Shown: piece after piece, positions 3,162 to 23,996 of the stretch
Numbering within the stretch: position 1 is the stretch's first letter
Layout of the letters: every line of letters begins with the position of its first letter
Translations under genes and position numbers: made by a program
Source: Candidatus Omnitrophota bacterium
Lineage (GTDB): Bacteria; Omnitrophota; Gorgyraeia; Tantalellales; Tantalellaceae
Direction: 5' to 3'
Assembly (NCBI GenBank): GCA_035403965.1
Contig: DAONGE010000006.1
Span: 6,521-70,520, forward strand
DNA: 64,000 nucleotides
The notes under the pieces: model-generated
Seen by the model: the letters and a program-made list of their open reading frames with translations, nothing else
What the model was told of the DNA's origin: nothing
The model's database searches: none

Positions 3162-3168
3162 TATGATG

Positions 3169-3199
3169 CGGGGGATCCTTTGGATCCCCCGTTGATTTT
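3169..3199 (+). terminator. Rho-independent terminator after the ilvH-ilvC-leuA operon
   Basis: Perfect 10-bp GC-rich inverted repeat CGGGGGATCC-ttt-GGATCCCCCG followed by a T-rich tract (gttgatttta). Confidence 0.65.
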
Positions 3200-3264: not shown

Positions 3265-4152
3265 ATGCTGATGAAAAAGAAAGAAACAAAAAAGTACGGA
3301 CTTCTCGGGAAAAATATAAGTTATTCGTTATCCCCGGCCATGCATAACGCGGCCTTCAGGTATTTCGGCATTCCCGCCGAATATCGTATATTCGACGTAA
3401 ATGAACAGGACATCCCGGATTTTATCGAAAAGAACGCGGGTGGAAAATCGCTTTCCGGCTTCAACGTGACTGTGCCGTACAAGATCATGGTGAAGGATAT
3501 GATATCCAGCATCGAAGGATGCAGTATAGATAAATCTGGCGGCGTGATCGGATCGATCAATACCGTTAAGGTTGAAGGTGCGCGTCTCATCGCTTTTAAT
3601 ACCGACGGTCAGGGTTTCTATGAATCGTTAAAGGACGACGCGGGGTTCGATCCTAAGGGAAAAAATATTTTTATCTGCGGGGCCGGTGGAGCTGGGCGCG
3701 CGGTATCCCTCTATCTGGCTTCACTTGGGCATGACGCCCCGTCGGTGATAAATGTTTTTGACGTGGACCGTGAGAAGATAAGTTCGATATTGTCCGCATC
3801 GGAGGCTTTCGCCGAGAAAAATATTCTTAAAGAATGCTTGTCAGGGGACGTTGAAAAAAAGATCGCCGAGAGCGACCTTATTGTGAACGCTACGCCGATA
3901 GGGACAAAGGACGACGGGGTTCTCCCGTGTCCGGTCCGGACGCTGAAAAAGTCGTCGGTCGTGTATGATCTGGTCTATTGCAGGGAGACCGAGCTTGTTA
4001 AACGCGCAAAGAAGATCGGTTGTGTCGCAGTTAACGGTCTTGGGATGCTTGTGAACCAGGGGGCGCTGGCATTCGGTATATGGACAGGCAAGCAACTTCA
4101 TGAAACAAAAAAAATAATGCGCGACGCGCTGAAGAACAGGGTGAAACAATAA
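3265..4152 (+). CDS. aroE: Shikimate dehydrogenase
   Basis: N-terminal YGLLGKNISYSLSPAMHNAAF shikimate-binding motif and NADP Rossmann GAGGAGRAV. Confidence 0.85.
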   Translation: MLMKKKETKKYGLLGKNISYSLSPAMHNAAFRYFGIPAEYRIFDVNEQDIPDFIEKNAGGKSLSGFNVTVPYKIMVKDMISSIEGCSIDKSGGVIGSINTVKVEGARLIAFNTDGQGFYESLKDDAGFDPKGKNIFICGAGGAGRAVSLYLASLGHDAPSVINVFDVDREKISSILSASEAFAEKNILKECLSGDVEKKIAESDLIVNATPIGTKDDGVLPCPVRTLKKSSVVYDLVYCRETELVKRAKKIGCVAVNGLGMLVNQGALAFGIWTGKQLHETKKIMRDALKNRVKQ

Positions 4153-4155: not shown

Positions 4156-4932
4156 ATGGTGGGAGCCGTTCTCGTTTTCATATTTGGCGTGGTGATCGGG
4201 AGCTTTCTGAATGTTTGTATCCACCGTATCCCCCGCAATGAATCTATCGTATGGCCGTCGTCGCATTGTCCGAAATGCGGGAAGGCCATAAGCCCGGTGG
4301 ATAATATACCGCTTTTAAGCTTTCTGATCCTAAAAGGGAAGTGCCGCGCATGCGGGGAGAAAATAAGCGTGCGTTATTTTCTCGTTGAATTGTTAACAGC
4401 CATTTTAGGGGTAGGATTGTTCTTTGTTTTTCCGGATCTTGCGGCTTTCGGCGTATACTGGCTGTTCGCCTGCATCCTACTTGTGATTGTTTTCATAGAT
4501 ATTGAACATAGGATTGTGCCGGATGTGCTGAGCTTGCCGGGAATAATACTGGGTTTTGTTCTTTCGGTCATGTCGGTTCCTGAGGGGAGGATTGTTTTTT
4601 CGCTGAATAATGGCGTCGATTCTCTGCTTGGTATGATCGCGGGAGCGGGATGCATATTCATCATGGGAACGGTCGGAGAGATGATCTTTCATAAAGAGGC
4701 CGTAGGCGGCGGAGACTTGAAACTTATGGGAATGATAGGGGCTTTTCTTGGATGGAAGATGGCGCTTCTTACTTTTTTTATGGCGCCGATCATAGGGTCG
4801 GTTTGTTCTATAAATATCCTGATACAAAAAAAGGATAGTGTCATCCCGTATGCGCCGTATCTATGTGCGTCGGCGATGATCAGTCTTTTGTTCGGAGAAA
4901 AAATAATCGGATTTTTATTCCCGGTATTTTAA
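4156..4932 (+). CDS. pilD: Prepilin leader peptidase / N-methyltransferase (peptidase A24)
   Basis: N-terminal tetracysteine DiS-P-DiS motif (CPKCGKAI...CRACGEKI) followed by a polytopic membrane A24 domain. Confidence 0.85.
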   Translation: MVGAVLVFIFGVVIGSFLNVCIHRIPRNESIVWPSSHCPKCGKAISPVDNIPLLSFLILKGKCRACGEKISVRYFLVELLTAILGVGLFFVFPDLAAFGVYWLFACILLVIVFIDIEHRIVPDVLSLPGIILGFVLSVMSVPEGRIVFSLNNGVDSLLGMIAGAGCIFIMGTVGEMIFHKEAVGGGDLKLMGMIGAFLGWKMALLTFFMAPIIGSVCSINILIQKKDSVIPYAPYLCASAMISLLFGEKIIGFLFPVF

Positions 4933-4948: not shown

Positions 4949-6076
4949 ATGTTGCGATATATGACAGCTGGAGAATCTCACGGAAAAGCGCTGATCGCGG
5001 TGATAGACGGTATCCCGGCCGGGTTAGAAATAGACAAAGAGTTCATAGATACTGAACTTTCCAGAAGAATGACCGGATACGGCAGGGGAAAAAGGATGTC
5101 TATCGAAAAAGATAAGGTCGATATCCTTTCCGGTTGCAGAAAAGGGATAACGATCGGGAGTCCCGTATGTCTGATGATCCCGAACGTAGATCACAAAATA
5201 GACGATTTAGCGGACGTCATTAATCCTAGGCCGGGGCATGCGGATCTGGCCGGGGTTCAAAAATACGGTTTTCAGGATGCGCGGGATGTTCTTGAACGCG
5301 CCAGTGCCAGGGAGACAGCGGCGCGTGTGGCGGCCGGCAGCGTCGCTAAGATCTTTCTTAAAGAGTTTGGGATAAGGATAATCAGTCATGTGACGGCTAT
5401 AGGCGGTGTTACAGCCGCGCTTAAAAAATATTCGTTCGACGAATTGCTTGTCATGACGGAAGGATCGGATCTTAGGTGTGCCGACCGTGAAGCGGAAAAA
5501 GCGATGAAAGAGGAAATAGACAAGGCCGCGAAGAACGGGGATACTCTAGGCGGCGTGTTTCGGGTGGTAGTGAATGGTGTTCCGCCTGGGCTGGGATCAC
5601 ACGTTCAATGGGACAGAAAACTTGACGGTATTATAGCGCAGGCCGTTATGTCGATACAGGCTGTTAAGGCTGTTTCGATCGGGGAAGGAATAGAGAATGC
5701 GGCCAGGAGCGGTTCGGAAGTACATGACTCGATCTATTACAATAACGGCGAACGGGCGTATTACCGTCTTACGAATAATGCTGGTGGGATAGAGGGCGGG
5801 ATAACGAACGGTGAAGATATCATTGTGCACGGTTTTATGAAGCCGATAGCGACACTGACGTCTCCGCTGAAGTCAGTGAATATCAATACGAAAGAAGATG
5901 CTTTCGCCTCGACGGAGCGATCCGATGTTACCGCCGTGGCGGCATGCGGAGTTGTCGCCGAAGCGATGCTGGCGGTTACGATCGCGGCGGCATTTGTCGA
6001 GAAATTTGGGAACGATTCGGTGAAGGAAATAAAACGGAATTTTGAGGCGTATATAAACGAACTTAAAAAAAGATAA
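4949..6076 (+). CDS. aroC: Chorismate synthase
   Basis: Full-length (375 aa) with motifs MLRYMTAGESHGKAL and GRHADLAG-like (RPGHADLAG). Confidence 0.95.
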   Translation: MLRYMTAGESHGKALIAVIDGIPAGLEIDKEFIDTELSRRMTGYGRGKRMSIEKDKVDILSGCRKGITIGSPVCLMIPNVDHKIDDLADVINPRPGHADLAGVQKYGFQDARDVLERASARETAARVAAGSVAKIFLKEFGIRIISHVTAIGGVTAALKKYSFDELLVMTEGSDLRCADREAEKAMKEEIDKAAKNGDTLGGVFRVVVNGVPPGLGSHVQWDRKLDGIIAQAVMSIQAVKAVSIGEGIENAARSGSEVHDSIYYNNGERAYYRLTNNAGGIEGGITNGEDIIVHGFMKPIATLTSPLKSVNINTKEDAFASTERSDVTAVAACGVVAEAMLAVTIAAAFVEKFGNDSVKEIKRNFEAYINELKKR

Positions 6077-6090: not shown

Positions 6091-7569
6091 GTGAAATATC
6101 CTAATAAGAATATTGTTCTTGTCGGATTTATGGGCACAGGTAAAACCTCGATAGGGAAACTGCTGGCAAAGAAACTTAATTTTAAATATGTCAGTACTGA
6201 CGGTCTTATTGTGGAAAAAGAAGGTCGAGAGATAAACGATATTTTTCTGCGTGATGGAGAGGCGTATTTCAGGACAATCGAGAAGAAAGTAGTAAAGGAT
6301 GTTAGCGCGAAGGACGGAGTGGTCATCGATACGGGGGGTGGCGTAGTCCTTAACGGTGAAAATATAAAAAATCTGAAACGTAAAGGCACCGTGATATGTC
6401 TCTGGTCGGATGCTGAGACTATACTTAACCGTACTAAAGGGTTCGGCCATAGGCCCCTTCTTAACTGTAAAGATCCCTTAAGAAAAATAAATAAACTATT
6501 GAAAGCCAGGCAGCCGTTCTATCGGAAAGCCGACGTGCATATAGACGCCGGGAACGGGGACCCTGACGTGGTCGCGCGGCGCATATGCGCCATCGTGAAA
6601 AATATCCGGGTGCGGGAAAAAGCCATAGCCGGAGAGAAGAGCAATATCGCCAAGTTGTTCGATAAGCTTCTGAATCACGCGATGATGCCGGTTTTCATAG
6701 CGGATAAGAATGGAACGATAAAATATCACAACCGAGCGTTTCTGGACGCGGTCGGGGAACGGATGAACGGCAAAAATTGGATAACGGAGATAGTGAAAAG
6801 GTCGCATCACGCGAAAGCATATGAGATACTAGATAGTATCAGTGAGAGCGGATCTCTGCACGATATAAGGTTTTTTGAGCTTTCGCGCAGAAAAGACCGT
6901 TGTATCTCAAAATGGATATCATGCGGGATCGTTACTCCGGGTGGCAGGAAGGGAATGATCTTTGTCGCGGATGAGCATAAACAGGGAGAACACGATTATT
7001 TGTCTCTTGGGGCCTCGGCTAGTGAAATAGTGATGACCAACATGATATTTTCCGGTGAAAGCCGTACGGATCTTTTTACGGCCAGTCATTCTTCCGGTGT
7101 GACAAAATATGCTCTGTCTCTCGGCAAACGGATGGGGCTTGATAAAAATGAGCTGAGGGTTCTCACTATGGCGGCTCTTTTACATGATATCGGGAAACTT
7201 GCAGTTGACGAGAAAATAACGTTTAAACGCGGCGCTCTGAACGTGAATGAATACAGACAGATGAAAAATCATCCGCTTTTTGGTGTGGAACTTTTGAGAC
7301 CGTTTGTGTATCTTTGGGAAGCTTTGCCGATCATTTTATTTCATCATGAGAGCTTCGATGGAACGGGTTATCCGTACGGGATAAAGGGCACAGATATCCC
7401 GCTTGGCGCGAGGATACTGAGTGTGGCCGATGTATATGAGGCGTTAACTGCCGATCGTCCGTACCGGAGCGCGTTCTCGAAAAAAGAAGCCCTAAAGATA
7501 ATGAAAAAAGGGCGCGGGGAGAAACTGGATCCCGCTATAACGAATGAATTTATTAAGATGATCAAATGA
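6091..7569 (+). CDS. aroK: Shikimate kinase fused to a PAS-like region and an HD-GYP c-di-GMP phosphodiesterase domain
   Basis: Residues 1-170 are a canonical AroK (Walker A GFMGTGKTSIG; DGGVVLNGEN). Residues ~330-492 carry the HD (LLHDIGK), HHE (FHHESFDGTG) and GYP (GYPYG) signatures of HD-GYP. The linker in between looks PAS-like. One continuous 492-aa ORF. Confidence 0.8.
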   Translation: MKYPNKNIVLVGFMGTGKTSIGKLLAKKLNFKYVSTDGLIVEKEGREINDIFLRDGEAYFRTIEKKVVKDVSAKDGVVIDTGGGVVLNGENIKNLKRKGTVICLWSDAETILNRTKGFGHRPLLNCKDPLRKINKLLKARQPFYRKADVHIDAGNGDPDVVARRICAIVKNIRVREKAIAGEKSNIAKLFDKLLNHAMMPVFIADKNGTIKYHNRAFLDAVGERMNGKNWITEIVKRSHHAKAYEILDSISESGSLHDIRFFELSRRKDRCISKWISCGIVTPGGRKGMIFVADEHKQGEHDYLSLGASASEIVMTNMIFSGESRTDLFTASHSSGVTKYALSLGKRMGLDKNELRVLTMAALLHDIGKLAVDEKITFKRGALNVNEYRQMKNHPLFGVELLRPFVYLWEALPIILFHHESFDGTGYPYGIKGTDIPLGARILSVADVYEALTADRPYRSAFSKKEALKIMKKGRGEKLDPAITNEFIKMIK

Positions 7570-8723
7570 GGGTACGAGAAACACGGATGGAAAAACTTTG
7601 CGGGGACATGATCAGAATGACGCTATTGCCCGGTTTTACTCCGGCCAAGGCGGTTAATTTTGTGGAGAGGATAAGAAACTCGGGAGATCTGTTCACGCCC
7701 GCATCGGGCGGCGCGGAAAAAATGGTGGAGGAAATACTTTTCTCGGCCGAAAAAAGCGCTTTATCCCTGGCGACAAAAAGATATGAGAAGGAAATAGAAT
7801 ATATCGCTAAGAACGGCATAAAGACCGTGTCGATCTTTGATGAAGCGTATCCCGCCTCGCTCAGGGAGATCTATGACCCGCCGCTTGTTCTTTATTTTAA
7901 GGGCGATCTCGCCGTGGAAGACGTCGACGCGGTAGGTGTTGTCGGTGCTCGCCACGCTTCGGAATACGGACTGCGTATGGCCGAGGAGATATCCGCCGGA
8001 TTGTGTAACGCGGGGGTGACCGTGGTTAGCGGTATGGCCAAAGGCATAGACACGGCGGCGCATCGCGGGGCGATAAAATCTTTCGGGCGGACCATCGCGG
8101 TAATGGGTAGCGGTTTCGCCAATCTGTATCCGGACGACGCGCAGGAAATGGTCTTGCGTATCGCCGAGAACGGAGCCGTGTTGACGGAGAATAGTTCGGA
8201 TATTTTACCTTTAAAATGGAATTTCCCGCGCCGGAACAGGATAATAAGCGGGTTGTCTAAAGGTATTGTGGTGGTGGAAGCCGCCAAGGATAGTGGTTCT
8301 CTTATAACCGCGGAGTTCGCGCTTGAGCAGGGTAAGGAAGTTTTCGCTGTTCCCGGCAGGATAGACACGCATATGTCGGACGGTACGAATCATCTTATTC
8401 AGCAGGGGGCCAAACTGGTGACGAGGGCCGAGGATATCCTGGAAGAACTGAACCTGGAGTACGGAGAGAGCCCCGGACGAAAGACGGCAAAAAAGACGGT
8501 GAATATGGAGAAAATTAAAAAAGGCCTTTCACCCGATCAGGTCAAGATCGTGGACCGGCTTGCGTCGGAAGAGGCTGTTCATATAAACGATCTGTGCGAC
8601 GCGACAGGGATAGATATGCCGCTTCTCAATAAGGAATTATTGCGGCTTGAGATAAATAGATTGATCAGGTTCGTTCCGGGGCAGTGTTTCGCGCTCAGGG
8701 ACCAAAATGAGATGAACATTTAA
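7566..8723 (+). CDS. dprA: DNA processing protein A (Smf)
   Basis: Rossmann-like DprA core (VGVVGARHASEYGLRMAEEISAGLCNAGVTVVSGMAKGIDTAAHRGA) plus a C-terminal winged-helix region. Precedes topA, as in many bacteria. Confidence 0.8.
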   Translation: MRVRETRMEKLCGDMIRMTLLPGFTPAKAVNFVERIRNSGDLFTPASGGAEKMVEEILFSAEKSALSLATKRYEKEIEYIAKNGIKTVSIFDEAYPASLREIYDPPLVLYFKGDLAVEDVDAVGVVGARHASEYGLRMAEEISAGLCNAGVTVVSGMAKGIDTAAHRGAIKSFGRTIAVMGSGFANLYPDDAQEMVLRIAENGAVLTENSSDILPLKWNFPRRNRIISGLSKGIVVVEAAKDSGSLITAEFALEQGKEVFAVPGRIDTHMSDGTNHLIQQGAKLVTRAEDILEELNLEYGESPGRKTAKKTVNMEKIKKGLSPDQVKIVDRLASEEAVHINDLCDATGIDMPLLNKELLRLEINRLIRFVPGQCFALRDQNEMNI

Positions 8724-8740: not shown

Positions 8741-10834
8741 ATGGCTGTCAAAAAAACAAAAAGTACCGCGAAGAAAAGCGGCGGCGACAAAGAAAAATAT
8801 CTGGTAGTTGTGGAGTCTCCCGCCAAGTCAAAAACCATCAACAAGATACTTGGCAAGAACTTCAAAGTGATCGCCAGTATGGGGCACATTGTGGATCTGC
8901 CGGCCGATAGGATGGGGATAGATTTTGAACATGATTTTACCCCTGAATATCAGGTGATGAAGGGCCGGGCCAAATACATGAAGGATATAAAAAAAGAGGC
9001 AAAAGAGGCAAAAACCGTGTTTCTGGCGGCCGACCCTGACCGTGAGGGAGAAGCTATCTGCTGGCATCTCAAAAATCAACTTGAGAGCTGTTGTTCTGAG
9101 TTTTTCAGAGTAAGGTTCGAGGAAATAACCGAACGCGCAGTGAAAGAGGCTTTTGAGAAAAAAGGCGAGATCGACATGAATAAAGTGAATGCCCAGCAGG
9201 CTCGCCGTGTTTTCGACAGGATAGTTGGATATTCGCTGAGTCCGCTGCTTTGGGGAAAGATCACTCGAGGTTTAAGCGCCGGCAGGGTACAGTCGGTCGC
9301 CGTGAGGCTCATCGTGGAAAGGGAAGAGGAAATAAAAAAATTCAAGCCCGAGGAATACTGGAGCCTTGACGCGATACTGCGCAAAGTGGCGGGAAAAGTG
9401 GATAAAGGGATCAGCGATTTCCGCGCGAAGCTTATAAAGTTCAAGGGCGAAAAAGTGCATATCGGAACTAAGATCACTTCGGACCAGATGATGTCTGGTC
9501 TTTCCGGGGCGAAATTCATAGTGGCCGATGTGGGCCGTAAGGAGAAAAAGAGTTATCCGCGTTCGCCGTACACCACCAGTGTTATGCAGCAGGACGCCTT
9601 CAATAAACTTAATTTTTCGGCCAGCAAGACCATGAGGATCGCGCAGAAACTTTATGAAGGCGTGGATCTCGGGGAGGCGGGAACTGTAGGTCTTATAACC
9701 TATATGCGTACCGATTCCGTGCGCATATCGGACGACGCGATGAAAGAACTGCAAAAATTTATTTTGGATAAATACGGCGCGAAATACGCCCCGCCGGTGC
9801 CTTTTGTTTACAAGGCCAAGAAAAGCGCCCAGGAAGCGCATGAAGCTATACGTCCGGCACTTCCGCTCAGGGAACCGAATAGCCTCGCGGCGTATCTAAC
9901 TCCTGATGAAATGAAGCTCTATACTCTGATCTGGAAAAGATTCGTGTCCAGCCAGATGCAGACGGCCGTGTACTCAGTGCTTACCGTTCATATCAACGCG
10001 GGAGAGTACACTTTCAGGGCCGGCGGATCGGATCTTATCTTTGACGGGTTTTTGCGTGTTTATAAAGAATACGGGGCGTTGGATGAGGAAGAAGTCCCGC
10101 CTGAGATGCCGCCCTTGGAGACGGGCGAGGAAGTGAAACTTGTGGAACTTATCCCGGAGCAGCATTTTACAAAACCGCCGGCCAGATATTCGGACGCGTC
10201 ACTTGTAAAAGTGCTGGAGGAAAAAGGGATAGGAAGGCCGTCCACATACGCGCCCATCATACGGACGATAATCGACAGGAACTATGTGAAACGCGTTAAC
10301 AGGTATTTTCAGCCCACGGAGTTAGGTCAGCTGGTCAACGACCTTCTTGTGAAAAATTTTCCGGATATAGTCGATTATGACTTTACGGCAAAGCTGGAAG
10401 GCGAACTGGACGATATCGAAGAAGGTAAAATGAACTGGGTAAAGGCCGTCAAAGAATTTTACGAGCCGTTCACCGGGAAATTGGCCGAAGCGAAAGAAAA
10501 AATGAAGAACGTCAATAAACAGGAAGTTAAAACCGATCAGGTCTGTGAAAAATGCGGCAGACCGATGATAATAAAATGGGGGAAGAAAGGCCGGTTCCTG
10601 AGTTGTTCCGGATTCCCGGAGTGCAGGAATGCGAAATCCATAAGCACCGGCGTGAAATGCCCCGCGGAGGGATGCGGCGGCGAACTTGTGGAACGCAGGT
10701 CTTTCCGCGGTTCTTTCTATGGATGCACGAATTACCCGAAATGTACGTATACGTCGCGAACGTTAAACCAGCCCGGGCAGGCGGCCGAAGGCGCGGCGGA
10801 CGGCGCCGCCGAGGCGAAAGTTGAAGACGAATGA
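8741..10834 (+). CDS. topA: DNA topoisomerase I
   Basis: TOPRIM N-terminus (YLVVVESPAKSKTINKILG). 697 aa. C-terminal Cys4 zinc ribbons (CEKCGRPM...CSGFPEC; CPAEGCGG...CTNYPKC). Confidence 0.95.
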   Translation: MAVKKTKSTAKKSGGDKEKYLVVVESPAKSKTINKILGKNFKVIASMGHIVDLPADRMGIDFEHDFTPEYQVMKGRAKYMKDIKKEAKEAKTVFLAADPDREGEAICWHLKNQLESCCSEFFRVRFEEITERAVKEAFEKKGEIDMNKVNAQQARRVFDRIVGYSLSPLLWGKITRGLSAGRVQSVAVRLIVEREEEIKKFKPEEYWSLDAILRKVAGKVDKGISDFRAKLIKFKGEKVHIGTKITSDQMMSGLSGAKFIVADVGRKEKKSYPRSPYTTSVMQQDAFNKLNFSASKTMRIAQKLYEGVDLGEAGTVGLITYMRTDSVRISDDAMKELQKFILDKYGAKYAPPVPFVYKAKKSAQEAHEAIRPALPLREPNSLAAYLTPDEMKLYTLIWKRFVSSQMQTAVYSVLTVHINAGEYTFRAGGSDLIFDGFLRVYKEYGALDEEEVPPEMPPLETGEEVKLVELIPEQHFTKPPARYSDASLVKVLEEKGIGRPSTYAPIIRTIIDRNYVKRVNRYFQPTELGQLVNDLLVKNFPDIVDYDFTAKLEGELDDIEEGKMNWVKAVKEFYEPFTGKLAEAKEKMKNVNKQEVKTDQVCEKCGRPMIIKWGKKGRFLSCSGFPECRNAKSISTGVKCPAEGCGGELVERRSFRGSFYGCTNYPKCTYTSRTLNQPGQAAEGAADGAAEAKVEDE

Positions 10835-11709
10835 CGATAGAGGCGGATCTTAATAAATTTCTTAAGTATCTCGAGGTGGAGAAGAATTATTCGGAGCATA
10901 CGCTTCGTAGCTATGCCGCGGATATCAGGGAGCTTATTGCGTCCGTTCCGGGTCAGAACGCGGAGGATGTCACGCATCTGGATATAAGAAAATTTCTCGC
11001 TGAGCTCAAGGAGAAAGGTTCTTCTAAACGGACCGTTGTTCGAAAACTAGCGGCGCTGAGATCGTTTTACAGATATCTTTTCAGGACTAACGCGGTCAGG
11101 ACAAATCCGGCCGCCGGAGTGTTTACCCCGAAACTTGATAAAAAATTGCCGGTTTTTCTGGATCCTGAAAGAACGGCGAAGCTGATAATGGCCCCGGCGG
11201 GGGACAGCTTTCAATGTAAACGCGACCATGCGATGCTGGAAGTGCTTTATTCCGGCGGGATCCGTGTTGGCGAACTTGTCGGGCTTAATCGGGACGATCT
11301 GGACATGATCGCCGGGGTAATAAAGGTCCGCGGAAAAGGAAAAAAAGAACGTATCGCCATGCTCGGATCAAAAGCCCAGCAGGCCGTTAAAGAATATCTG
11401 GATAAATGCAGGGAGATTGGGCGCGACGCGAACGGGCCTTTGTTCATGAATAAACTCGGGACACGGATAACAGACAGGAGCGTAAGGCGGTTTCTTGACA
11501 AATATGTTAAACAGTGCGGCATAGAGGAGAAGGTGTCCCCGCATGCGATCAGGCATTCGTTCGCTACGCATATGCTTAATAACGGAGCGGATCTCAGGAG
11601 CGTGCAGGAATTATTGGGGCATAAAAATCTTTCGACGACACAGATATATACTCATCTTGGGACACAGAAAATAAAAGAAATGTATTTGAAAGCTCATCCG
11701 AGGGCATAA
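10831..11709 (+). CDS. xerC: Tyrosine site-specific recombinase XerC/XerD
   Basis: ATGA overlap with the topA stop. N-terminal SAM-like domain (YSEHTLRSYAADIRE). C-terminal R..HxxR..Y catalytic region (HAIRHSFATHML...LGH...IYTH). Confidence 0.85.
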   Translation: MTIEADLNKFLKYLEVEKNYSEHTLRSYAADIRELIASVPGQNAEDVTHLDIRKFLAELKEKGSSKRTVVRKLAALRSFYRYLFRTNAVRTNPAAGVFTPKLDKKLPVFLDPERTAKLIMAPAGDSFQCKRDHAMLEVLYSGGIRVGELVGLNRDDLDMIAGVIKVRGKGKKERIAMLGSKAQQAVKEYLDKCREIGRDANGPLFMNKLGTRITDRSVRRFLDKYVKQCGIEEKVSPHAIRHSFATHMLNNGADLRSVQELLGHKNLSTTQIYTHLGTQKIKEMYLKAHPRA

Positions 11710-11742: not shown

Positions 11743-13020
11743 ATGAGATTTTTATTTGACGTATTTTTTATGATGTTTTCGGTGGTATATCTGCCGTATC
11801 TTTTTCTCGGCAGACGTATGCACAAGGATTTCAAACAGCGTTTTGGGTATTTGCCGGCGGAAGCGACGAGTTTTAAAAAGCCCGTGTGGATACACGCGGT
11901 AAGCGTCGGGGAGGCACAAGTGGCGCTGGAACTGGCGGCAAAACTCAAAAAAGAAATGAAGGATGTTCCCGTGGTGGTTTCGGTCACAACAAAGACCGGA
12001 TACGCACTTCTGAGCCAATGGGCGGGGAAAACGGTGGACGCTGTTTTTTACTCGCCGATAGATATCTCATGGATAGTCGCCCGTGTTATACGAAAAATAG
12101 ATCCACGTGTTTATGTCATGATCGAGACCGAGATATGGCCGAATATTCTTACGGCTCTGAGAAGAAATAAGGTCCCGATAGTGCTCGCCAACGGGCGTAT
12201 TTCGGATTTTTCGTTCAATAATTACCGCACGATAAGGTTTCTTATAAAAGGTGTTTTTGAAAACATTAATGTTGCATGTATGCAGTCGCAGAAAGACGTG
12301 GAAAGGATAATTGCGCTGGGTATTCCGGAGAAAAGATGTTTTGTGACCGGTAATATGAAATTTGATATGGCCGGAGGCGGAATGGGCGAAGGGATCTCGA
12401 AAAAAGACATAGGATTTGAGGACGGCGACGAAGTGCTGGTAGCCGGAAGCACGCACAGCCCCGAAGAAAAATATCTGACCGATATTTACCGGGAGATTCG
12501 TGTCGGCAACAAAAAAGTAAAATTTATCGTCGCTCCGCGGCACATAGAAAGGGCCGATTCCGTTCAGGAATATATAGAGGGCACAGGGCTTGTCGTTCAG
12601 CGGTTTTCCGAGATCTATCGTAATCCCGGACTTAAGCGTCGAGACCTGGATGTCGTGATCGTTGATACGATAGGGCATCTTAAAAATATTTATAACGCCG
12701 CTACCGTTATCTTTATAGGCAAAAGCCTTGTCGAGAACGGAGGCGGACAGAATCCGATAGAGGCGGCCAGGTGGGGGAAACCCGTTGTTTTCGGGAAATA
12801 TATGTCTAATTTCAGAGAGATCGCTGATCTTTTTCTTGAAAACGGCGCCGCGCTGGAAGTGTCCGACAAAGAAAACCTGGCGATTGTACTGGACCGGTTG
12901 TTCGAGAACGGGGAGGAACGTTCCCGTTTAGGGACAAACGCGTTGAAGGTCATAGAAAGGAATACGGGCGCGACAGCACGGACTGCGGAAAAGATAAAAT
13001 ATATTGTTGTATACGCGTGA
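11743..13020 (+). CDS. waaA: 3-deoxy-D-manno-octulosonic acid (Kdo) transferase
   Basis: Membrane anchor followed by the KdtA motif KPVWIHAVSVGEAQVALELAAKL. 425 aa GT30 fold. Confidence 0.85.
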   Translation: MRFLFDVFFMMFSVVYLPYLFLGRRMHKDFKQRFGYLPAEATSFKKPVWIHAVSVGEAQVALELAAKLKKEMKDVPVVVSVTTKTGYALLSQWAGKTVDAVFYSPIDISWIVARVIRKIDPRVYVMIETEIWPNILTALRRNKVPIVLANGRISDFSFNNYRTIRFLIKGVFENINVACMQSQKDVERIIALGIPEKRCFVTGNMKFDMAGGGMGEGISKKDIGFEDGDEVLVAGSTHSPEEKYLTDIYREIRVGNKKVKFIVAPRHIERADSVQEYIEGTGLVVQRFSEIYRNPGLKRRDLDVVIVDTIGHLKNIYNAATVIFIGKSLVENGGGQNPIEAARWGKPVVFGKYMSNFREIADLFLENGAALEVSDKENLAIVLDRLFENGEERSRLGTNALKVIERNTGATARTAEKIKYIVVYA

Positions 13021-13029
13021 CGGATATTT

Positions 13030-14085
13030 ATGGCGAGATATAGTATGAAAGAATATTTTTTTCTTGTTATGACAGACCGTAAAACCGGGCCTGGTGACCG
13101 CGTTGCGGCTGGGGTCCTTTATTTCGTATCGATTCTTTATGCCATGGTGATGCGGTTCAGAGGCCGGATGTACAAAAGAGGTTTTTTTAAGGTAAGGAAG
13201 GCTGCGGTTCCGGTCATAAGTGTGGGGAATATTACACTTGGTGGTACCGGGAAAACGCCCTTTGTGGCCTTTCTCGCCGATAGATTGACGGCATTAGGCA
13301 TGAAACCGGCCGTTCTTACCAGAGGGTACGGCGACGATGAACACCGTATGCTGAGGGATGATATCCCCGATGTCCCGGTAGTAGTCGGCAGTAACCGTGT
13401 ACGAAACGCGGAAAAAGCCGTTCGTCTTGGGGCGAATATACTGATAATGGACGATGGCTTTCAACACAGACGTCTCGGGCGTGATCTTGATATCGTTCTT
13501 TTGGACAGTGCAAAGCCGTTCGGGAACGGATATGTATTTCCGCGGGGTACATTGCGTGAACCGCAGGACGCGATCCGCCGCGCGGATGTTGTTGTTCTTT
13601 CAAAATGCGATAAAATCCCGGAAGGTACGGATCTGAAAAAGATAGCCGGAAATTTGGATATCCGCCAGGGCGTGCCGGTCATCGCGATAAAATATAAAGC
13701 AAAATTTTTATCCGATGTAACGGGCGCGGTTTATCCGGCGGAAAACTTCAAAGGTAAAAAGGTGTGCATTGTTTCCGGGATAGCCGATCCTGAATATTTC
13801 GGATCGATGGTCGGGAAAACGGGTGCGATCATAGAGTCCGAAAGATATTTTATGGACCATCATGCGTATACACAGAACGATGTAAACGAGATATTGAGGA
13901 TGTGTGTGCGTAATGAGGCCGACGCCGTGATAGTAACGGCTAAAGATTATGTAAAACTCAGGAAGTTGGATCTTTCCGAGTTGGAAAGTAAATTGTTCGT
14001 TCTTAAAATCTCGGTAGACATAACACAGGGAGAGGAAGTATTCAGTGCTGGACTTAATAGCCTCATACATGCTTCGCGGTCTTAG
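13030..14085 (+). CDS. lpxK: Tetraacyldisaccharide 4'-kinase
   Basis: P-loop in the LpxK context (ISVGNITLGGTGKTPFVAFLADRL). 351 aa. Confidence 0.85.
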   Translation: MARYSMKEYFFLVMTDRKTGPGDRVAAGVLYFVSILYAMVMRFRGRMYKRGFFKVRKAAVPVISVGNITLGGTGKTPFVAFLADRLTALGMKPAVLTRGYGDDEHRMLRDDIPDVPVVVGSNRVRNAEKAVRLGANILIMDDGFQHRRLGRDLDIVLLDSAKPFGNGYVFPRGTLREPQDAIRRADVVVLSKCDKIPEGTDLKKIAGNLDIRQGVPVIAIKYKAKFLSDVTGAVYPAENFKGKKVCIVSGIADPEYFGSMVGKTGAIIESERYFMDHHAYTQNDVNEILRMCVRNEADAVIVTAKDYVKLRKLDLSELESKLFVLKISVDITQGEEVFSAGLNSLIHASRS

Positions 14086-15979
14086 TATATTGTTCTGTTA
14101 TATACCGATCCGCGCTGTTTTGGCGTATGGAAGGTTTTGCGGAAAGATCGCGTATTTGTTAAGTGGTAAGCGGTGCTGCGTGACGTATTCTAATCTTAAG
14201 GCTGCTTTTCACGGCGAAAAGTCCCCGGAGGAGATATCCGAGATAGCGAAAAAGGCGTATCTTTCGGTCGGAGAGGTCTTCGCGGAGCTTGTGGCAGTTC
14301 CACGTGTAGACGCACGGTATGTGGAGAAATATATAAAGATCAATAATTTTGAGCGCATACAGAAAGCAGCGTCGAACCCGAAAGGGATGATACTGGTCTC
14401 GGCGCATTTCGGGAACTGGGAGCTTAGCACAGTTGCGAGTGCGATCAAAGGATATCCGTTGTATATGCTCGCGCGTGATCAGAAAATGAAAAGGCTTAAC
14501 GAGCTACTGAACCTTCTTCGCGAAACCAAAGGCAATATGGTCGTTCGTAAAGGCGTGGATATAAAAAACATTTTCAGGCTCCTGAGGTCGGGGAAAAGCC
14601 TGGGTTTATTGGCCGATCAGAACGCGGGGGCTTCGGGTGAGTTAGTAGACTTTTTCGGCAGGCCCGCTTCAACTGCTACGGGGCCTTACCGTTTCGCCCA
14701 AAAGACGGGCGCGGTAGTGTTGCCGGCCTTTATACATCGCAAGAACGGTCCGTATCAGGAACTGTATCTGGAAGAGATAATGGAGATAAAAGAGGACGAA
14801 AGCATTATCCCATATATGGAACGGTACAACGCGCTTTTGGAAAAACACATAAGACAGTCGCCCTCTCAGTGGTTCTGGATGCATAAACGCTGGAAAAAGA
14901 CATCTGTTAAAAAAGTTATGGTCCTGGATGACGGGAAGAAAGGGCATTTAAAAGAATCGTTAGCGATACTTAAACAGATAGAGATATATCGCAAAGATGA
15001 AGGCTTCCAAGACAAGGACCTTGAGGTTCAGATAGTGAGTATCCGTTTTCGCGATAAGTTTAGGAAAGCCGTATTTAACGCTTTTTGCCCGCTGCTTACG
15101 TGGCGATTGGGGATGCATCGTAAAATGCTAGCCTGGGCGATGACGGCGGAAACGTACAAAGACGCTATCAATAGATACGCCGATGTCATCGTAAGCTGTG
15201 GTTCGGGGCTTTATGGCGTGAGTACCGCGCTAAAAATAGAGAATTATGCCAAGAATATAGCCGTACTGGATCCCGGAAAGATCAATTACGGGAAATTTAA
15301 CGTGATCGTGATGCCGAGGCATGACGTGAAGTCTTCTAAGGTCGCGGACAATATAGTTGTGACGGAACTCGCGCCTAACCTTATTGTGCCGTCAGAATTA
15401 TTGTCTTTACGCGTGTCGCTTGCGGGGAAAATGGTCTCCGGTAAGGTTAACGTGGGCGTTCTTATCGGCGGGGACAACGGTTTTTACGCGTTCACAGAAG
15501 ATATGGTTAGAAATATTATGGGTGGTATTGTGGATTTTTGCAGAAAAAAAGACGGTAAAATATTCGCGACGACATCACGTCGTACTCCGGAAAGTGCGGA
15601 AAATGCCGCGGCGGAGATGCTTTTAAAGGATAGTACCTGCGGTTTTTTCGTTTACGGTAAGAATGATACCGATGATAAAACCGTGGATAAGATATTGGCG
15701 CTTTCGGATATAGTGGTAGTATCGGGTGAAAGTATTTCCATGGTATCCGAAGCGGTTTCGTCCGGTAAACCGGTTGTCGTGTTCATGCCGGTCAAGAAGC
15801 ATGCAAAAACCAATAAGTACGAGGCGTACGTGAAACGGCTCGAAAATGAAGGTTATCTGACGCTTTTCTCCGGCGGCGACCTGACTGTGGTGCTGGATCG
15901 GGTGTCTGCTTCCGACGTGAAACGTAAGGCGATAGAGGATAACCGCAGAATATACGAAAAGATACATAAACTATTTTAG
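14045..15979 (+). CDS. lpxL: Lipid A late acyltransferase (LpxL/HtrB family) fused to a C-terminal ELM1/DUF1022-like domain
   Basis: The N-terminal ~290 aa carry LpxL-family motifs (HFGNWELS; LLADQNAG; FWMHKRWK). The C-terminal ~340 aa begin VMVLDDGKKGHLKESLAIL and end VVVSGESISMVSEAVSSGKPVVVF, which I recognise as the ELM1/DUF1022 pattern. Family assignment is from memory, not a search. The likely start is the internal Met at 14069. Confidence 0.7.
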   Translation: MLDLIASYMLRGLSILFCYIPIRAVLAYGRFCGKIAYLLSGKRCCVTYSNLKAAFHGEKSPEEISEIAKKAYLSVGEVFAELVAVPRVDARYVEKYIKINNFERIQKAASNPKGMILVSAHFGNWELSTVASAIKGYPLYMLARDQKMKRLNELLNLLRETKGNMVVRKGVDIKNIFRLLRSGKSLGLLADQNAGASGELVDFFGRPASTATGPYRFAQKTGAVVLPAFIHRKNGPYQELYLEEIMEIKEDESIIPYMERYNALLEKHIRQSPSQWFWMHKRWKKTSVKKVMVLDDGKKGHLKESLAILKQIEIYRKDEGFQDKDLEVQIVSIRFRDKFRKAVFNAFCPLLTWRLGMHRKMLAWAMTAETYKDAINRYADVIVSCGSGLYGVSTALKIENYAKNIAVLDPGKINYGKFNVIVMPRHDVKSSKVADNIVVTELAPNLIVPSELLSLRVSLAGKMVSGKVNVGVLIGGDNGFYAFTEDMVRNIMGGIVDFCRKKDGKIFATTSRRTPESAENAAAEMLLKDSTCGFFVYGKNDTDDKTVDKILALSDIVVVSGESISMVSEAVSSGKPVVVFMPVKKHAKTNKYEAYVKRLENEGYLTLFSGGDLTVVLDRVSASDVKRKAIEDNRRIYEKIHKLF

Positions 15980-15992
15980 ACAGGATGACGAT

Positions 15993-18074
15993 ATGAACGT
16001 ATTGCAGCTTTTACCTAAACTTGAACTTGGCGGCGTAGAACGGGGCACTATAGAAATGTCGCGTTACCTTACAATGAAAGGGCATAAAGCCGTGGTCGTC
16101 TCCGGTGGCGGCAGACTGGAAAAAAGCCTTACAGCGGCCGGTGCCAAGCATTATATGCTGCCTGTAGGCAAAAAGAACCCTCTTATCATGGTGTACTGTT
16201 ATTTCAAAATAAGGGCGATAATTAAAAAAGAAAATATTCATCTTGTGCACGGAAGAAGCCGGGTGCCTGCGCTTATCGGCTATTTCGCCGCGCGTGCCGA
16301 GAAAAGAACATTTATAACCACGGCGCACGGACATTATAAAAAACATCTTATCAGTAAAGTGATGGGGTGGGGGAAGATAGTGATCGTTGCCAGTAACTTT
16401 ATGGCACAGTACATGAAAGAGAATTTCGGGGTGCTTCCGGGGAAGATAGTAGTGATACCGAGAGGAGTGGATCTTGAAAGGTTTTCTTTTATACGTCCGG
16501 CCAAACGTGCGGATAAAGTGTTCCGCGTCGGAATGATAGCCAGGTTTACTCCGCTCAAGGGACACATGGATTTTCTGAAGGCGGTCGCGTATGTTTCCAG
16601 AAAGATGCCGAATCTGGAAGTTGTTCTGATGGGCGATAGGAATGAGGCCCGTCCGGATTATATTAAAAAAATGGATCTGGCGATAAAACGATATCTGATA
16701 GATAAAATTGTTAGATTTGTCGGTCCGGGTGAAAGCGTGCCAGAAGTATTACGCGGGCTGGATGTTCTTGTGTCAGCCTCACGCGAACAGGAGGCTTTTG
16801 GACGATCGATTATAGAGGCGCAGGCGCGAGGGGTTCCGGTAGTGGCGACACGTGTCGGCGGAGTTGTGGAAACAGTTGAGGACGGGGTCACGGGACTGTT
16901 GTGCGAAGCGTCGGATCCTTCGGATATGGCGAACAAAATAATGAAATACGCTTCCAGTCTGGAGTTTAGGCAGGAAATAGCCGAGAAAGCCCGGAAGAAT
17001 GTTGAAGAGCTTTATTCCGTGGAACGGTGTATGAGCCTTGAACTTGAGGCGTATCGCCGTGCATGTGAAATAAAGAAGATTCTGGTGTTTAAGATCAGTT
17101 CACTGGGAGACGTGATACTTTCAGTCCCGTCTTTACGTGCGATAAGGAGCCGTTTTGCAGACGCTTCAATAAAGGTACTGGTGGACGTTAAATTCAGGAA
17201 AGTCCTCGAGGGCTGTCCTTATGTCGACGAGATCATTACCTGCGATTTCAATGAAAGGGACGCCGGGGCCGGATTTTTTAAACTGGCAGATCGCTTGCGA
17301 GCCGAGGATTTTGATTTTTCGGTGGATCTTCAAAATAGCACGAAAAGCCATCTGCTCGCGTTTTTAGGTATGATACCGGAAAGGTTCGGATATAATAACG
17401 GCAAAATGAGTTTTCTTCTGAACCATAAAGCTGTTCTTCCCAAAAAAGCCATGGGACCGGTCGATCATCAGGCACAGTTATTATCGATCCTCGGGATAAA
17501 TATGGTGGAAAAATCTCTTGAACTTTGGCCCGGAGAAGAACATAAAAAATGGGCAAAGAATTTTCTTCAAGTGAACTGGCTGAACGAGGGACAGAAACTG
17601 GTAGGTATAAGTCTTTCGGCCAGTGCCAGATGGGGAACTAAAAATTGGGGGATGTCGCAGATACAGTCGCTTGCGGATATGCTGGGGAAAGACGATATAC
17701 GTGTGGTTTTTATCGGTACTCCGAGCGATATCCCTGCCGCTGAAAAACTTACAAAGAAGAACAATCTTAAAGCTATTAACGCCGTGGGGAAAACAAATAT
17801 ATCACAGCTTATCGCGCTTATTGCGGAATGTTCCGTTGTTGTGAGCGGCGATTCGTCGCCTATGCATATCGCCGCCGGTGTCGGGGTGCCGTTCGTAGGT
17901 CTTTTCGGTCCGACCGATCCTGACAGACACGCTCCGCCTGCTGTGAAATGCAGGATAATCGGGAAAAAGGCGAAATGTTCGCCATGTTACAAAGGAGAAT
18001 GCAATAACGGCCATAGATGTATGTCGGGTATCCGGCCACAGGAAGTTTATAACGCGGTGAAAGATCTGATGTGA
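15993..18074 (+). CDS. Bidomain glycosyltransferase: N-terminal GT4 (GT-B, WaaG-like) fused to a C-terminal GT9 heptosyltransferase
   Basis: N-terminus has GGVERGTIEMSRYL and an EX7E-like region (GRSIIEAQARGVPVV) typical of GT4. From ~aa 350 comes KKILVFKISSLGDVILSVPSLRAIRSRF (the GT9 N-terminus), and the protein ends with a Cys-rich GT9 C-terminus. Confidence 0.75.
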   Translation: MNVLQLLPKLELGGVERGTIEMSRYLTMKGHKAVVVSGGGRLEKSLTAAGAKHYMLPVGKKNPLIMVYCYFKIRAIIKKENIHLVHGRSRVPALIGYFAARAEKRTFITTAHGHYKKHLISKVMGWGKIVIVASNFMAQYMKENFGVLPGKIVVIPRGVDLERFSFIRPAKRADKVFRVGMIARFTPLKGHMDFLKAVAYVSRKMPNLEVVLMGDRNEARPDYIKKMDLAIKRYLIDKIVRFVGPGESVPEVLRGLDVLVSASREQEAFGRSIIEAQARGVPVVATRVGGVVETVEDGVTGLLCEASDPSDMANKIMKYASSLEFRQEIAEKARKNVEELYSVERCMSLELEAYRRACEIKKILVFKISSLGDVILSVPSLRAIRSRFADASIKVLVDVKFRKVLEGCPYVDEIITCDFNERDAGAGFFKLADRLRAEDFDFSVDLQNSTKSHLLAFLGMIPERFGYNNGKMSFLLNHKAVLPKKAMGPVDHQAQLLSILGINMVEKSLELWPGEEHKKWAKNFLQVNWLNEGQKLVGISLSASARWGTKNWGMSQIQSLADMLGKDDIRVVFIGTPSDIPAAEKLTKKNNLKAINAVGKTNISQLIALIAECSVVVSGDSSPMHIAAGVGVPFVGLFGPTDPDRHAPPAVKCRIIGKKAKCSPCYKGECNNGHRCMSGIRPQEVYNAVKDLM

Positions 18075-22980: not shown

Positions 22981-23021
22981 AGAAAAGGTTTAGATGGTAA
23001 AAACAAAAACAAGGAGGACAT

Positions 23022-23777: not shown

Positions 23778-23801
23778 TCTGTTTTACACATAGTACGGAT
23801 A

Positions 23802-23848
23802 AATGGGCCGTTTCCGAGGAGCGATTGGAGCGGCCCATTTTTTATTAT
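23802..23848 (+). terminator. Rho-independent terminator after the peroxiredoxin gene
   Basis: AATGGGCCG ... CGGCCCATT stem followed by TTTTTTATTATTT. Confidence 0.55.
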
Positions 23849-23950: not shown

Positions 23951-23996
23951 TATCGGGCTGTTAGACTATCAAAAATAACAGTAAGGGAGAAAGGCC

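Follow-up and report, generated by a model that had tools for sequence, protein, structure and literature searches.

An in-frame shikimate kinase-PAS-HD-GYP fusion in Omnitrophota, apparently a rare end state of a conserved coupled gene pair

Results

Gene neighbourhood and authenticity of the fusion

The fusion gene occupies positions 6091-7569 of the plus strand of the window, as we call the whole 64-kb stretch of DNA analysed. It starts with GTG, ends with TGA and encodes a single chain of 492 amino acids, in which shikimate kinase (SK), PAS and HD-GYP modules follow one another. The initial annotation had proposed this three-module ORF; its coordinates proved exact, and its composition is borne out by the predicted folds and by Pfam, which recovers SKI, PAS_8 (borderline) and HD_5. 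The placement inside an aro cluster, also claimed there, is correct. The gene lies between aroC (chorismate synthase; 4949-6076, plus strand), which ends 14 nt upstream, and dprA (7566-8723, plus strand), directly downstream; its stop codon and a possible ATG of dprA overlap within ATGA. aroE (shikimate dehydrogenase; 3265-4152) precedes it on the same strand in an operon-like block, with pilD, encoding a prepilin peptidase of the A24 family (4156-4932, plus strand), between aroE and aroC. After dprA come topA (8741-10834) and xerC (10831-11709). In syntenic loci, the aroE position carries Shikimate_dh_N/SDH_C, and all of them hold A24_N_bact/Peptidase_A24 at the position of pilD.

Terminators and promoters were called by consensus scan only. 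A strong terminator-like hairpin between leuA and aroE (3168-3192, plus strand; 11 pairs, 8 of them G-C) may mark the start of an aroE...xerC transcription unit, and the scan gave no terminator-like site at the borders of the fusion gene with aroC and dprA. Promoter matches around the operon were at chance level (14, with 14.1 expected). Further along, the window contains the stand-alone PilZ protein that had been noted earlier (118 aa; 47587-47943, plus strand; Pfam PilZ E=5e-10), with both c-di-GMP-binding motifs, RxxxR ('RRKYPR') and DxSxxG ('DVSRGG'). Judged from these motifs, this canonical PilZ indicates that the organism uses c-di-GMP. There is also a second aromatic-amino-acid block (55496-59611, plus strand) with pheA (CM-PDT-ACT), an aminotransferase, DAHP synthase and prephenate dehydrogenase, and thus the aromatic pathway is present in the organism. 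Searching the 64-kb window by phmmer with the retrieved multidomain proteins gave no GGDEF, REC or aroB.

The same 492-aa protein is encoded on at least six contigs of different, independent assemblies and samples, including Logan SRR5007244, ENA ERZ795026 and an NCBI record. About ten divergent full-length relatives share its architecture at 39-44 % identity, eight of them in one clade of a neighbour-joining (NJ) tree (75 % bootstrap), and the sequence across the SK-HD-GYP junction is continuous and homologous. The catalytic residues of both enzymes are all invariant across this ~40 %-identical family. The initial annotation had raised the concern that a frameshift at the junction artificially joined two genes. 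In split relatives the two genes overlap in such a way that a 1-nt indel would yield a fused ORF, so that a mis-call in an individual metagenome-assembled genome is conceivable; the identical contigs and the conserved architecture nonetheless exclude an assembly or sequencing artefact here, and we consider it practically impossible. By its architecture the protein is a genuine two-enzyme fusion, both activities being predicted from conserved residues.

The shikimate kinase module

AroK (EC 2.7.1.71) uses ATP to convert shikimate to shikimate-3-phosphate. The N-terminal module (6130-6591, plus strand) matches Pfam SKI over residues 14-167 (E=3.8e-41); the match scores 141.3 bits, where the cutoff is 22.1, and covers positions 1-156 of the 159 in the profile. 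The predicted fold of the module spans residues ~6-170 and has pLDDT of ~75-92. Foldseek comparison with the solved SKs 4y0a, 2iyq, 1l4u and 1kag gave target-normalised TM scores of 0.88-0.93 and rmsd of 1.3-1.6 Å. The Walker A motif is G12-F-M-G15-T-G17-K18-T19 (GFMGTGKT), with G15, G17, K18 and T19 invariant in the fusion family. These four residues, together with D37, R61, G82-84, the lid residue R121 and R140, are kept in 88/88 SKs; the latter set aligns to D34, R58, G79-81, R117 and R136 of the M. tuberculosis (Mtb) enzyme (1l4u). The profile match, the fold and the retained shikimate, ATP and lid residues agree with the earlier description of a complete AroK module.

The equivalent of Mtb D32 is Ser35, a position that varies across the 88 SKs (D52, S23, E10, C2, R1). 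Ser occupies it in 17/17 partnered SKs and in 8/71 partner-less aroKs. We considered Ser35 as a signature of partnership and dropped it as independent evidence, since the residue is characteristic of the lineage, partner-less sister kinases included.

Is this module the aroK of the pathway? The locus answers in large part. The slot aroC-[aroK]-dprA holds a plain aroK in 28 partner-less loci, and the partnered SKs group with these in the SK tree; by position as well as by sequence, the module is thus orthologous to the plain aroK found in related genomes. The 64-kb window contains no second SK, its sole other P-loop match (59517-60287) being a cytidylate kinase. These two observations led us to judge the SK module the pathway's housekeeping aroK, and the earlier proposal that it is not an accessory paralog is supported. 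The opposite reading, in which a non-catalytic or accessory paralog serves here to sense a ligand while the true aroK lies elsewhere in the genome, could appeal to the 64-kb reach of the second-SK search, to Ser35 and to the NCBIfam scores, which stay below the equivalog cutoffs for the best model (PRK13947, 176.5 bits against 204) as for the other SK models. SK models are nevertheless the top NCBIfam matches of the module. We also tried the SK-like homoserine kinase model (NF040667) and rejected it: it scores far lower (94.7 bits), and the shikimate-binding residues are kept. Moreover, each assembly is represented only once among the 80 closest SK loci of species-representative genomes. With all shikimate-, ATP- and lid-contacting residues retained, we regard the accessory-paralog reading as very improbable.

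The linker, PAS and HD-GYP regions

The inter-module linker (6586-6645, plus strand; about residues 166-185) is poorly conserved and predicted to be disordered. It is the least conserved segment of the protein, with a majority-residue frequency of 0.37 against 0.70 for the SK and 0.72 for the HD-GYP module. In the predicted structure, modelled as a single chain from 12 sequences and with a whole-model pTM of 0.57, pLDDT falls below 50 at residues 173-183. Comparison of the junctions with split loci shows that the linker consists of the C-terminal tail of aroK and the N-terminus of a formerly separate PAS-HD-GYP protein. This variable linker, predicted to be disordered, is an observation beyond the initial annotation.

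The PAS-like sensor domain (6643-7020, plus strand; about residues 185-310) is picked up by Pfam, NCBIfam, the structural model and Foldseek. Both profile matches are borderline: PAS_8 at residues 189-231 (E=5e-5; 23.4 bits against a cutoff of 21.8) and TIGR00229 (22.9 bits, cutoff 22.9). Precomputed matches of the relatives are stronger and include PAS, PAS_4 and PAS_9. In the model, helices accompany five strands (201-204, 209-213, 257-264, 270-281, 287-297), with pLDDT of ~58-87, and Foldseek aligned the PAS/HD-GYP structure of DvhD (9rc0) over 313 columns. Thus, the profile match is weak, and the predicted fold supports the presence of a PAS domain. Only G208, N214 and W275 are nearly invariant in it, and no LOV-type 'NCRFL' motif was seen on reading the fusion-protein sequence.

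The HD-GYP domain (7081-7539, plus strand; residues 331-483) matches Pfam HD_5 (PF13487, an HD-GYP-type family) with E=3.8e-37 and 128.1 bits (cutoff 27.2), covering positions 15-170 of the 170 in the profile, and Pfam HD with 69.3 bits (cutoff 22). The motifs listed in the initial annotation are all present: beside the Walker A motif of the kinase, HD (H365-D366), HHE (418-420) and GYP (426-428) are invariant across the family. The metal-ligand set H333, H365-D366, H394, H418-H419 and D447 is invariant in 12/12 sequences and aligns to PmGH, the GAF-HD-GYP c-di-GMP phosphodiesterase of Persephonella marina. The signature HHExxDGxGYP reads H418-H-E-S-F-D423-G-T-G-Y427-P428, with H418, H419, E420, D423, G424, G426, Y427 and P428 invariant in the 12-sequence family; R456, Y458 and R459 are further key residues of the domain. 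The best solved relatives are PmGH (4mcw, E=7e-34), V-cGAP3 (5z7c, E=1e-27) and PA4781 (4r8z).

Four positions ahead of the first His, PmGH carries a Glu, which we take to be its third-metal ligand E185. The window protein has Phe there ('dlFtasH' versus 'dpEtqnH'), and across the family the position is D/E in 7/12 sequences and G, W, Y or F in the others. On sequence grounds the window protein is excluded from the tri-nuclear, PmGH-type subclass and still falls within the HD-GYP family. With Phe in place of Glu, the metal site of the window protein is probably binuclear, more likely resembling that of PA4781; by the same replacement, the metal site and the product (pGpG or GMP) may differ from those of PmGH.

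A degenerate, receptor-type HD-GYP was also considered. DvhD, a c-di-GMP receptor of Desulfovibrio vulgaris, is a membrane protein with HD changed to SQ and HH to MN, and has no hydrolytic activity (PMC13090378). Both motifs being intact in the fusion, we ruled out degeneration of this kind and favour an enzyme over a receptor. The substrate is most probably c-di-GMP, as suggested by the best solved match, PmGH, an active c-di-GMP phosphodiesterase, by ligands and GYP motif that are invariant, unlike those of DvhD, and by the PilZ protein, which argues that c-di-GMP is the messenger of the organism. Another cyclic dinucleotide could serve instead, as the second-best solved relative, V-cGAP3, is a 3'3'-cGAMP phosphodiesterase. 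That the window encodes no GGDEF cyclase also weighs against the explanation favoured below. A module that degrades 3'3'-cGAMP or pGpG, or whose main role is that of a nucleotide receptor, would fit the variable PmGH Glu position and the fact that DvhD is the nearest solved PAS/HD-GYP architecture. Given the evidence for c-di-GMP hydrolysis, we find such a module quite improbable.

aroK alone, coupled pair and fusion across Omnitrophota

The gene order around the fusion, ilvBNC-leuA-aroE-pilD-aroC-[X]-dprA-topA-xerC, is conserved. X is a plain aroK of 166-200 aa in about 28 other genomes of Omnitrophota. In one Omnitrophota sub-lineage X is aroK followed by a separate PAS-HD-GYP gene, and in a few of its members the two are fused. 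The PAS-HD-GYP start of the split form falls inside the last 14-35 nt of aroK. In split loci L004, L005/L006, L010, L013, L017, L018, L024, L090 and L091, the two ORFs overlap and a Shine-Dalgarno sequence lies within aroK. By this geometry, the split-form pair is predicted to be translationally coupled. One locus (L011) has a single in-frame TAG between aroK and PAS-HD-GYP, and a fused one (L003) retains a relic AAGGAG-N7-ATG at the junction, in the +1 frame.

Fused and split states are intermingled. A PAS-less subfamily (L007-L009) exists in both states and keeps the pairing with aroK. Within this separate clade (100 % bootstrap), the fused P0012 pairs with the split L009 (99 %), and another fused protein, P0008, is nested among split genes (71 %). 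The NJ trees leave the deep order of fused and split forms unresolved, so we limit the claim to at least 2-3 inferred changes of state, of either direction.

The association is specific to this HD-GYP family. All orthologs with known context lie behind aroK or are fused to it. A metagenome scan seeded with PAS-HD-GYP gave two true orthologs, both (2/2) adjacent or fused to aroK, and 78 generic HD-GYP loci; these served as a negative control, and none of them (0/78) has this arrangement. On this comparative evidence, the fusion is a rare end state of a conserved coupled gene pair, one that appears to have been formed or broken several times; the initial annotation had not gone so far.

Discussion

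We describe a protein in which a housekeeping biosynthetic enzyme is covalently joined to a predicted c-di-GMP turnover enzyme. This is unusual, as c-di-GMP turnover enzymes are normally under the control of sensor domains. Each half has well-known counterparts. The SK module shares the fold of AroK (PF01202; Mtb 1l4u/2iyq, E. coli 1kag, Aquifex aeolicus 2pt5) and matches its Walker A motif, catalytic Asp, shikimate-binding Arg and GGG, and lid Arg, at the operon position of aroK in related genomes; it differs from plain AroK by a 320-residue C-terminal PAS-HD-GYP extension and from the Mtb enzyme by the lineage-specific Ser at the D32 position. Among solved structures, the C-terminal module is closest to PmGH (4mcw/4mdz) in both sequence and fold, and it aligns with PmGH at all HD, H, HH and D ligands and at the GYP motif. 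PmGH carries a GAF sensor where the fusion has PAS, lacks a kinase module and has the Glu that is Phe in the fusion. DvhD (9rc0, 9rbz) shares the tandem of PAS followed by HD-GYP, but the fusion protein is cytoplasmic, keeps its catalytic motifs intact and bears AroK at its N-terminus. It is probably dimeric, through its PAS and HD-GYP domains.

SK is likewise fused in frame to the enzyme of a neighbouring gene in AroK-AroB proteins (NCBIfam NF010556/NF010627), of which P0056 is an example among the relatives retrieved, and in the pentafunctional AROM (7tbv, 7u5s). In both cases, the joined enzymes act one after another in a single pathway, whereas the partner here is a predicted second-messenger phosphodiesterase without a role in chorismate synthesis. 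The regulators of NF006015 ('anaerobic benzoate catabolism transcriptional regulator') also combine an SK-like domain with a regulatory module, and this model gives 87 bits to the SK part of the fusion. In them, an SK-like domain with a presumed sensor role is attached to a DNA-binding domain; in the fusion, a housekeeping SK has an enzyme as partner. The initial annotation knew of no such architecture, and in the literature that we searched we found no description of SK combined with HD-GYP. Thus, a two-enzyme SK-HD-GYP protein is apparently undescribed.

The explanation that we favour, with moderate confidence, is a bifunctional enzyme arising from the easy and reversible fusion of co-translated genes, with modules that remain largely autonomous on a flexible tether. 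The N-terminal module would be the housekeeping AroK, acting with the products of aroE and aroC encoded just upstream, and the C-terminal part most probably a PAS-gated, metal-dependent HD-GYP phosphodiesterase hydrolysing c-di-GMP, with the PAS domain as regulator of the phosphodiesterase. The fusion would have originated in an Omnitrophota sub-lineage whose PAS-HD-GYP gene overlaps the end of aroK, where a 1-nt indel or the loss of a single stop codon would merge both frames, a step presumably repeated or reversed. In the split form AroK and PAS-HD-GYP would be co-translated, and in the fused form they would gain 1:1 stoichiometry and tethering. The link between the two activities that is demonstrated is obligatory co-expression; the two catalytic modules are probably largely autonomous.

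The initial annotation had also suggested that either process might regulate the other. Under such allosteric coupling, closure of the kinase on ATP, shikimate or shikimate-3-phosphate would switch HD-GYP through the linker and the PAS dimer, or c-di-GMP would modulate the kinase. Strict, family-specific adjacency to aroK, combined with repeated fusion, forms the 'Rosetta-stone' pattern classically associated with proteins that interact, strong purifying selection acts on both modules, and NF006015 provides a precedent for SK-like domains fused to regulators. On the other hand, the segment that would transmit the signal is the least conserved of the protein and predicted to be disordered, fused and split states swap freely, and the loss of PAS leaves the pairing intact. 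The overlap makes fusion mutationally trivial, so its recurrence needs no selection, and Ser35, the sole SK residue peculiar to partnered kinases, is also present in partner-less relatives. A rare end state of a coupled pair, joined by a variable linker predicted to be disordered, weakens the suggestion of cross-regulation, and we consider allosteric coupling unlikely. Its corollary, that c-di-GMP reports aromatic-pathway flux or energy charge and that the split proteins form a complex, is equally so. Still, constant adjacency and repeated fusion could reflect a real physical or functional interaction that is invisible to a single-chain model from 12 sequences. It is tempting to imagine a metabolic-to-second-messenger relay, in which c-di-GMP hydrolysis is controlled by the ligand state of the kinase, or the entry into chorismate synthesis by c-di-GMP, although we hold this to be rather improbable. 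If it were true, aromatic amino-acid flux would directly set surface, pilus or competence behaviour in the small-celled Omnitrophota, and the proteins of split genomes would form the equivalent complex non-covalently.

Gene context inspires a different reading, in which AroK is a bystander: PAS-HD-GYP would serve the pilus and competence genes of the block, its phosphodiesterase tuning how c-di-GMP controls type IV pili or the uptake of DNA, and the fusion would be a neutral accident of overlap. The HD-GYP gene lies exactly between aroK and dprA, with its stop overlapping the possible dprA start (ATGA), and the block also holds the prepilin peptidase, with PilZ within the window. In other bacteria, ComFB mediates the control that cyclic dinucleotides exert on natural competence and on pilus biogenesis, and Omnitrophota encode ComFB-domain proteins (PMC12448109), which would be in line with such a role. 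However, pilD and dprA hold the same positions in many Omnitrophota lacking HD-GYP, and thus the block does not need it. The bystander reading as a whole, the neutral origin of the fusion included, appears doubtful to us.

The pattern is worth more than the single fusion: one HD-GYP ortholog stands behind aroK wherever its context is known, is apparently coupled to it and has repeatedly been fused. It predicts that the shikimate pathway, or the operon that it shares with pilus and competence genes, is linked to c-di-GMP signalling in Omnitrophota, which can be tested. To our knowledge, this uncultured phylum has no cultured model. The loci also form a natural series for the evolution of a multidomain protein from an overlap, from aroK alone to the coupled pair, the fusion and the PAS-less fusion. 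If the modules are autonomous, the protein would be a neat, if modest, case of gene fusion. For annotation, the case is a warning: the identical protein at NCBI (P0001) is named 'shikimate kinase [Candidatus Omnitrophota bacterium]', and names such as 'shikimate kinase' or 'HD domain-containing protein' each hide half of the fusion.

Results

The fusion gene is a single ORF on the + strand (window 6091-7569, 492 aa), starting with GTG 14 nt after the aroC stop codon. Pfam recognizes in its product SKI (residues 14-167, E=3.8e-41), PAS_8 (residues 189-231, E=5e-5, barely over threshold) and HD_5, an HD-GYP-type family (residues 331-483, E=3.8e-37), as the initial annotation had claimed. The top NCBIfam matches are shikimate kinase (SK) models, at 176.5 bits (equivalog cutoff of 204 not reached); SK-like homoserine kinase was rejected as an identity, as its model scored only 94.7 bits. 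The AlphaFold model (mean pLDDT 80.8, pTM 0.57) contains a PAS-like five-stranded sheet at residues 185-310. The linker at about residues 166-185 is predicted to be disordered and shows the lowest conservation (0.37 vs 0.70 for SK and 0.72 for HD-GYP).

A frameshift or assembly artefact had to be considered. However, the identical protein (P0001, 'shikimate kinase [Candidatus Omnitrophota bacterium]' at NCBI) is encoded on at least six independently assembled contigs, among them Logan SRR5007244, ENA ERZ795026 and the NCBI record, and ten more full-length proteins (P0002-P0011, 492-511 aa) contain the same three modules at 39-44 % identity and 97-99 % query cover. The fusion is thus genuine. 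When 1.84 billion cluster representatives were searched with a profile, four clusters (50 % identity level) contained the full-length fusion, and at least eight others contained ~340-aa proteins matching the PAS-HD-GYP part only. Among 265 retrieved proteins, SK and HD-GYP occur together solely in the fusion family, which is restricted to one Omnitrophota sub-lineage.

Judging by their conserved residues, both enzymatic modules look catalytically competent. Across this ~40 %-identical family, the SK residues G15, G17, K18, T19, D37, R61, G82-84, R121-P-L-L124 and R140 are invariant, corresponding in the alignment to K15, S16, D34, R58, G79-81, R117 and R136 of M. tuberculosis SK, and the modelled module superposes on solved shikimate kinases with TM 0.88-0.93 and rmsd 1.3-1.6 A. 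The sole departure from the M. tuberculosis key residues is Ser35 (codon 6193-6195) in place of D32. Among 88 SKs this position is D in 52, S in 23, E in 10, C in 2 and R in 1, while the remaining key residues are kept in 88/88. Ser is found in 17/17 HD-GYP-partnered kinases, and since partner-less sister kinases carry it as well, we regard it as a lineage trait.

The HD-GYP module aligns best with PmGH (4mcw, E=7e-34), followed by V-cGAP3 and PA4781. Its invariant residues are H333, H365-D366, H394, H418-H419-E420, D423-G424, G426-Y427-P428, D447 and R456/Y458/R459. The PmGH Glu four residues ahead of the first His, which we take to be the third-metal ligand, is replaced by Phe in the window protein (D/E in 7/12 fusion-family members), and therefore a binuclear site is likelier in this protein. 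By structure comparison, the C-terminal part of the model resembles PmGH, PA4781 and the PAS/HD-GYP protein DvhD. In DvhD, SQ stands in place of HD and MN in place of HH, which leaves it a c-di-GMP receptor without catalysis (PMC13090378), whereas both motifs are intact in the fusion protein, which favours an enzyme over a receptor.

Around the SK gene, distant members of the family keep the order ilvB-ilvN-ilvC-leuA-aroE-prepilin peptidase-aroC-[X]-dprA-topA-xerC-waaA-lpxK. Species-representative genomes were scanned with an SK-only alignment and the 80 closest SK loci, no assembly occurring twice, were classified by the content of slot X. A plain aroK of 166-200 aa fills it in 62 loci, 28 of them with dprA-type synteny; aroK precedes a distinct HD-GYP gene in eight (L008-L011, L013, L017, L018, L024), and the fusion occupies it in one (L012). 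No second SK was found in the 64-kb window, which holds a second aromatic block of pheA, an aminotransferase, DAHP synthase and tyrA. Orthology of the slot bears out the view that this is the pathway's own kinase, so that the fusion protein appears to carry the housekeeping aroK. A weak P-loop match at 59517-60287 was discarded as a second SK, being cytidylate kinase (cmk). As listed, the ORFs of tyrA (58763-59611) and cmk share ~95 nt, and the TTG start given for cmk probably lies too far upstream. The aroA gene, which often adjoins cmk-rpsA in other bacteria, is absent from this tyrA/cmk block.

The aroK/HD-GYP pairing is strikingly specific and conserved. All orthologs of the fusion-type HD-GYP with known context (window, L001, L003, L004, L005/6, L007-L013, L017, L018 and L024) are fused to aroK or lie immediately 3' of it. 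To avoid the bias of kinase-seeded searches, metagenome contigs were also scanned with a PAS-HD-GYP-only alignment; the two true orthologs recovered (loci L090 and L091) have an overlapping upstream aroK and the same synteny, and no SK lies within 3.5 kb of any of 78 generic HD-GYP loci.

In split loci, the PAS-HD-GYP gene begins in the +1 frame within the final 14-35 nt of aroK, and its AAGG-type Shine-Dalgarno lies in the '...EKIKRI...' codons of the aroK C-terminus, an overlap that couples their translation. Loci L005 and L006, from two independent runs, show an identical split arrangement. A 1-nt indel would join the two frames. Such an event in a pair of overlapping genes would account for the relic AAGGAG-N7-ATG that the fused locus L003 (P0011) retains in its +1 frame where the two parts meet (about 10510-10530). 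L011 has both ORFs in one frame, separated by one TAG (6511-6513) with an ATG three codons on, and read-through would give a fusion protein. A PAS-less subfamily (separate clade, 100 % support) is split into aroK and a ~215-aa HD-GYP-only gene in L008 (6482-7132) and L009 (6477-7145; on the complete 1.43-Mb chromosome CP070780.1) and is a 372-aa fusion (P0012) in L007 (4646-5764), the L009 and P0012 proteins pairing at 99 %. Fused P0008 falls among split genes (71 %), while eight other fusions group together (75 %). These positions imply at least two or three changes between the fused and split states, counted without direction. The fusion is mutationally easy to make.

Discussion

Our analysis establishes a real bifunctional architecture whose SK module is orthologous to aroK. 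Each module belongs to a well-known family (AroK, PAS, and HD-GYP of the PmGH/PA4781 type). In the known SK fusions, AroK-AroB and AROM, the partners are enzymes of the SK's own pathway, and the partners known for HD-GYP are sensor or receiver domains. Searches of full-text literature yielded no description of an SK-HD-GYP protein, in line with the earlier impression that the architecture is undescribed; databases label family members 'shikimate kinase' or 'HD domain-containing protein'. With such a specific, conserved pairing, a connection of the shikimate operon with c-di-GMP can be put directly to the test.

Residue conservation shows purifying selection on both active sites, and the gene arrangements make the two activities necessarily co-expressed, through joint translation in split loci and 1:1 tethering in fused ones. 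The AroK module would phosphorylate shikimate for the pathway of the upstream aroE and aroC, and the HD-GYP module, controlled by the PAS domain, would hydrolyse c-di-GMP. No GGDEF was found in the 64-kb window. The canonical PilZ reported initially is indeed present (47587-47943, RxxxR and DxSxxG motifs), indicating that the organism uses c-di-GMP.

We lean towards a flexible tether between modules that act largely on their own, because the linker is the least conserved part and predicted disordered, fusion is freely reversible and the PAS domain can be lost. There are two main rivals. Allosteric cross-regulation between SK and HD-GYP would fit the Rosetta-stone pattern of the pairing, and SK-domain regulators exist (NF006015); given the same linker and reversibility, we consider it unlikely. 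Equally improbable, in our opinion, is that aroK is a bystander of a phosphodiesterase whose role lies with the block's pilus and competence genes (prepilin peptidase, dprA), even though cyclic dinucleotides act through ComFB on competence and pili and Omnitrophota have ComFB-domain proteins (PMC12448109).

Some features of the surroundings deserve mention. The prepilin peptidase (A24) gene at 4156-4932 sits between aroE and aroC, as in L001, L003, L005-L007, L088 and many of L008-L087, and dprA-topA-xerC follows aroK; this order is kept across Omnitrophota, HD-GYP present or not. Assemblies titled 'uncultured Planctomycetia/Planctomycetales bacterium' (L014, L016, L018, L021, L022, L024 and others) carry the Omnitrophota-type leuA-aroE-pilD-aroC-aroK-dprA-topA-xerC order and the closest aroKs, and their titles may reflect coarse automated taxonomy. 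A second fused/split pair lies nearby: a 644-aa protein (14045-15976) joins a lipid A acyltransferase domain to a Mito_fiss_Elm1-like domain, also in L001, L003 and L005, and in L004 (8849-10833) a gene of its own (198 aa) encodes some of the Elm1-like part. The large LPS-core/Kdo cluster (11743-28467) includes a 693-aa protein (15993-18071) with GT4/GT1 glycosyltransferase and GT9 heptosyltransferase domains, kept in L001, L003 and L004, and a Macro-domain protein (21422-21940). Between serA and purA, a 264-aa ORF (38687-39478) matched no Pfam family at E<=1e-6. By a greedy ORF call the + strand carries 59 of the 62 window ORFs. Starts and stops overlap in many places, which suggests long arrays of co-directional genes with coupled translation.
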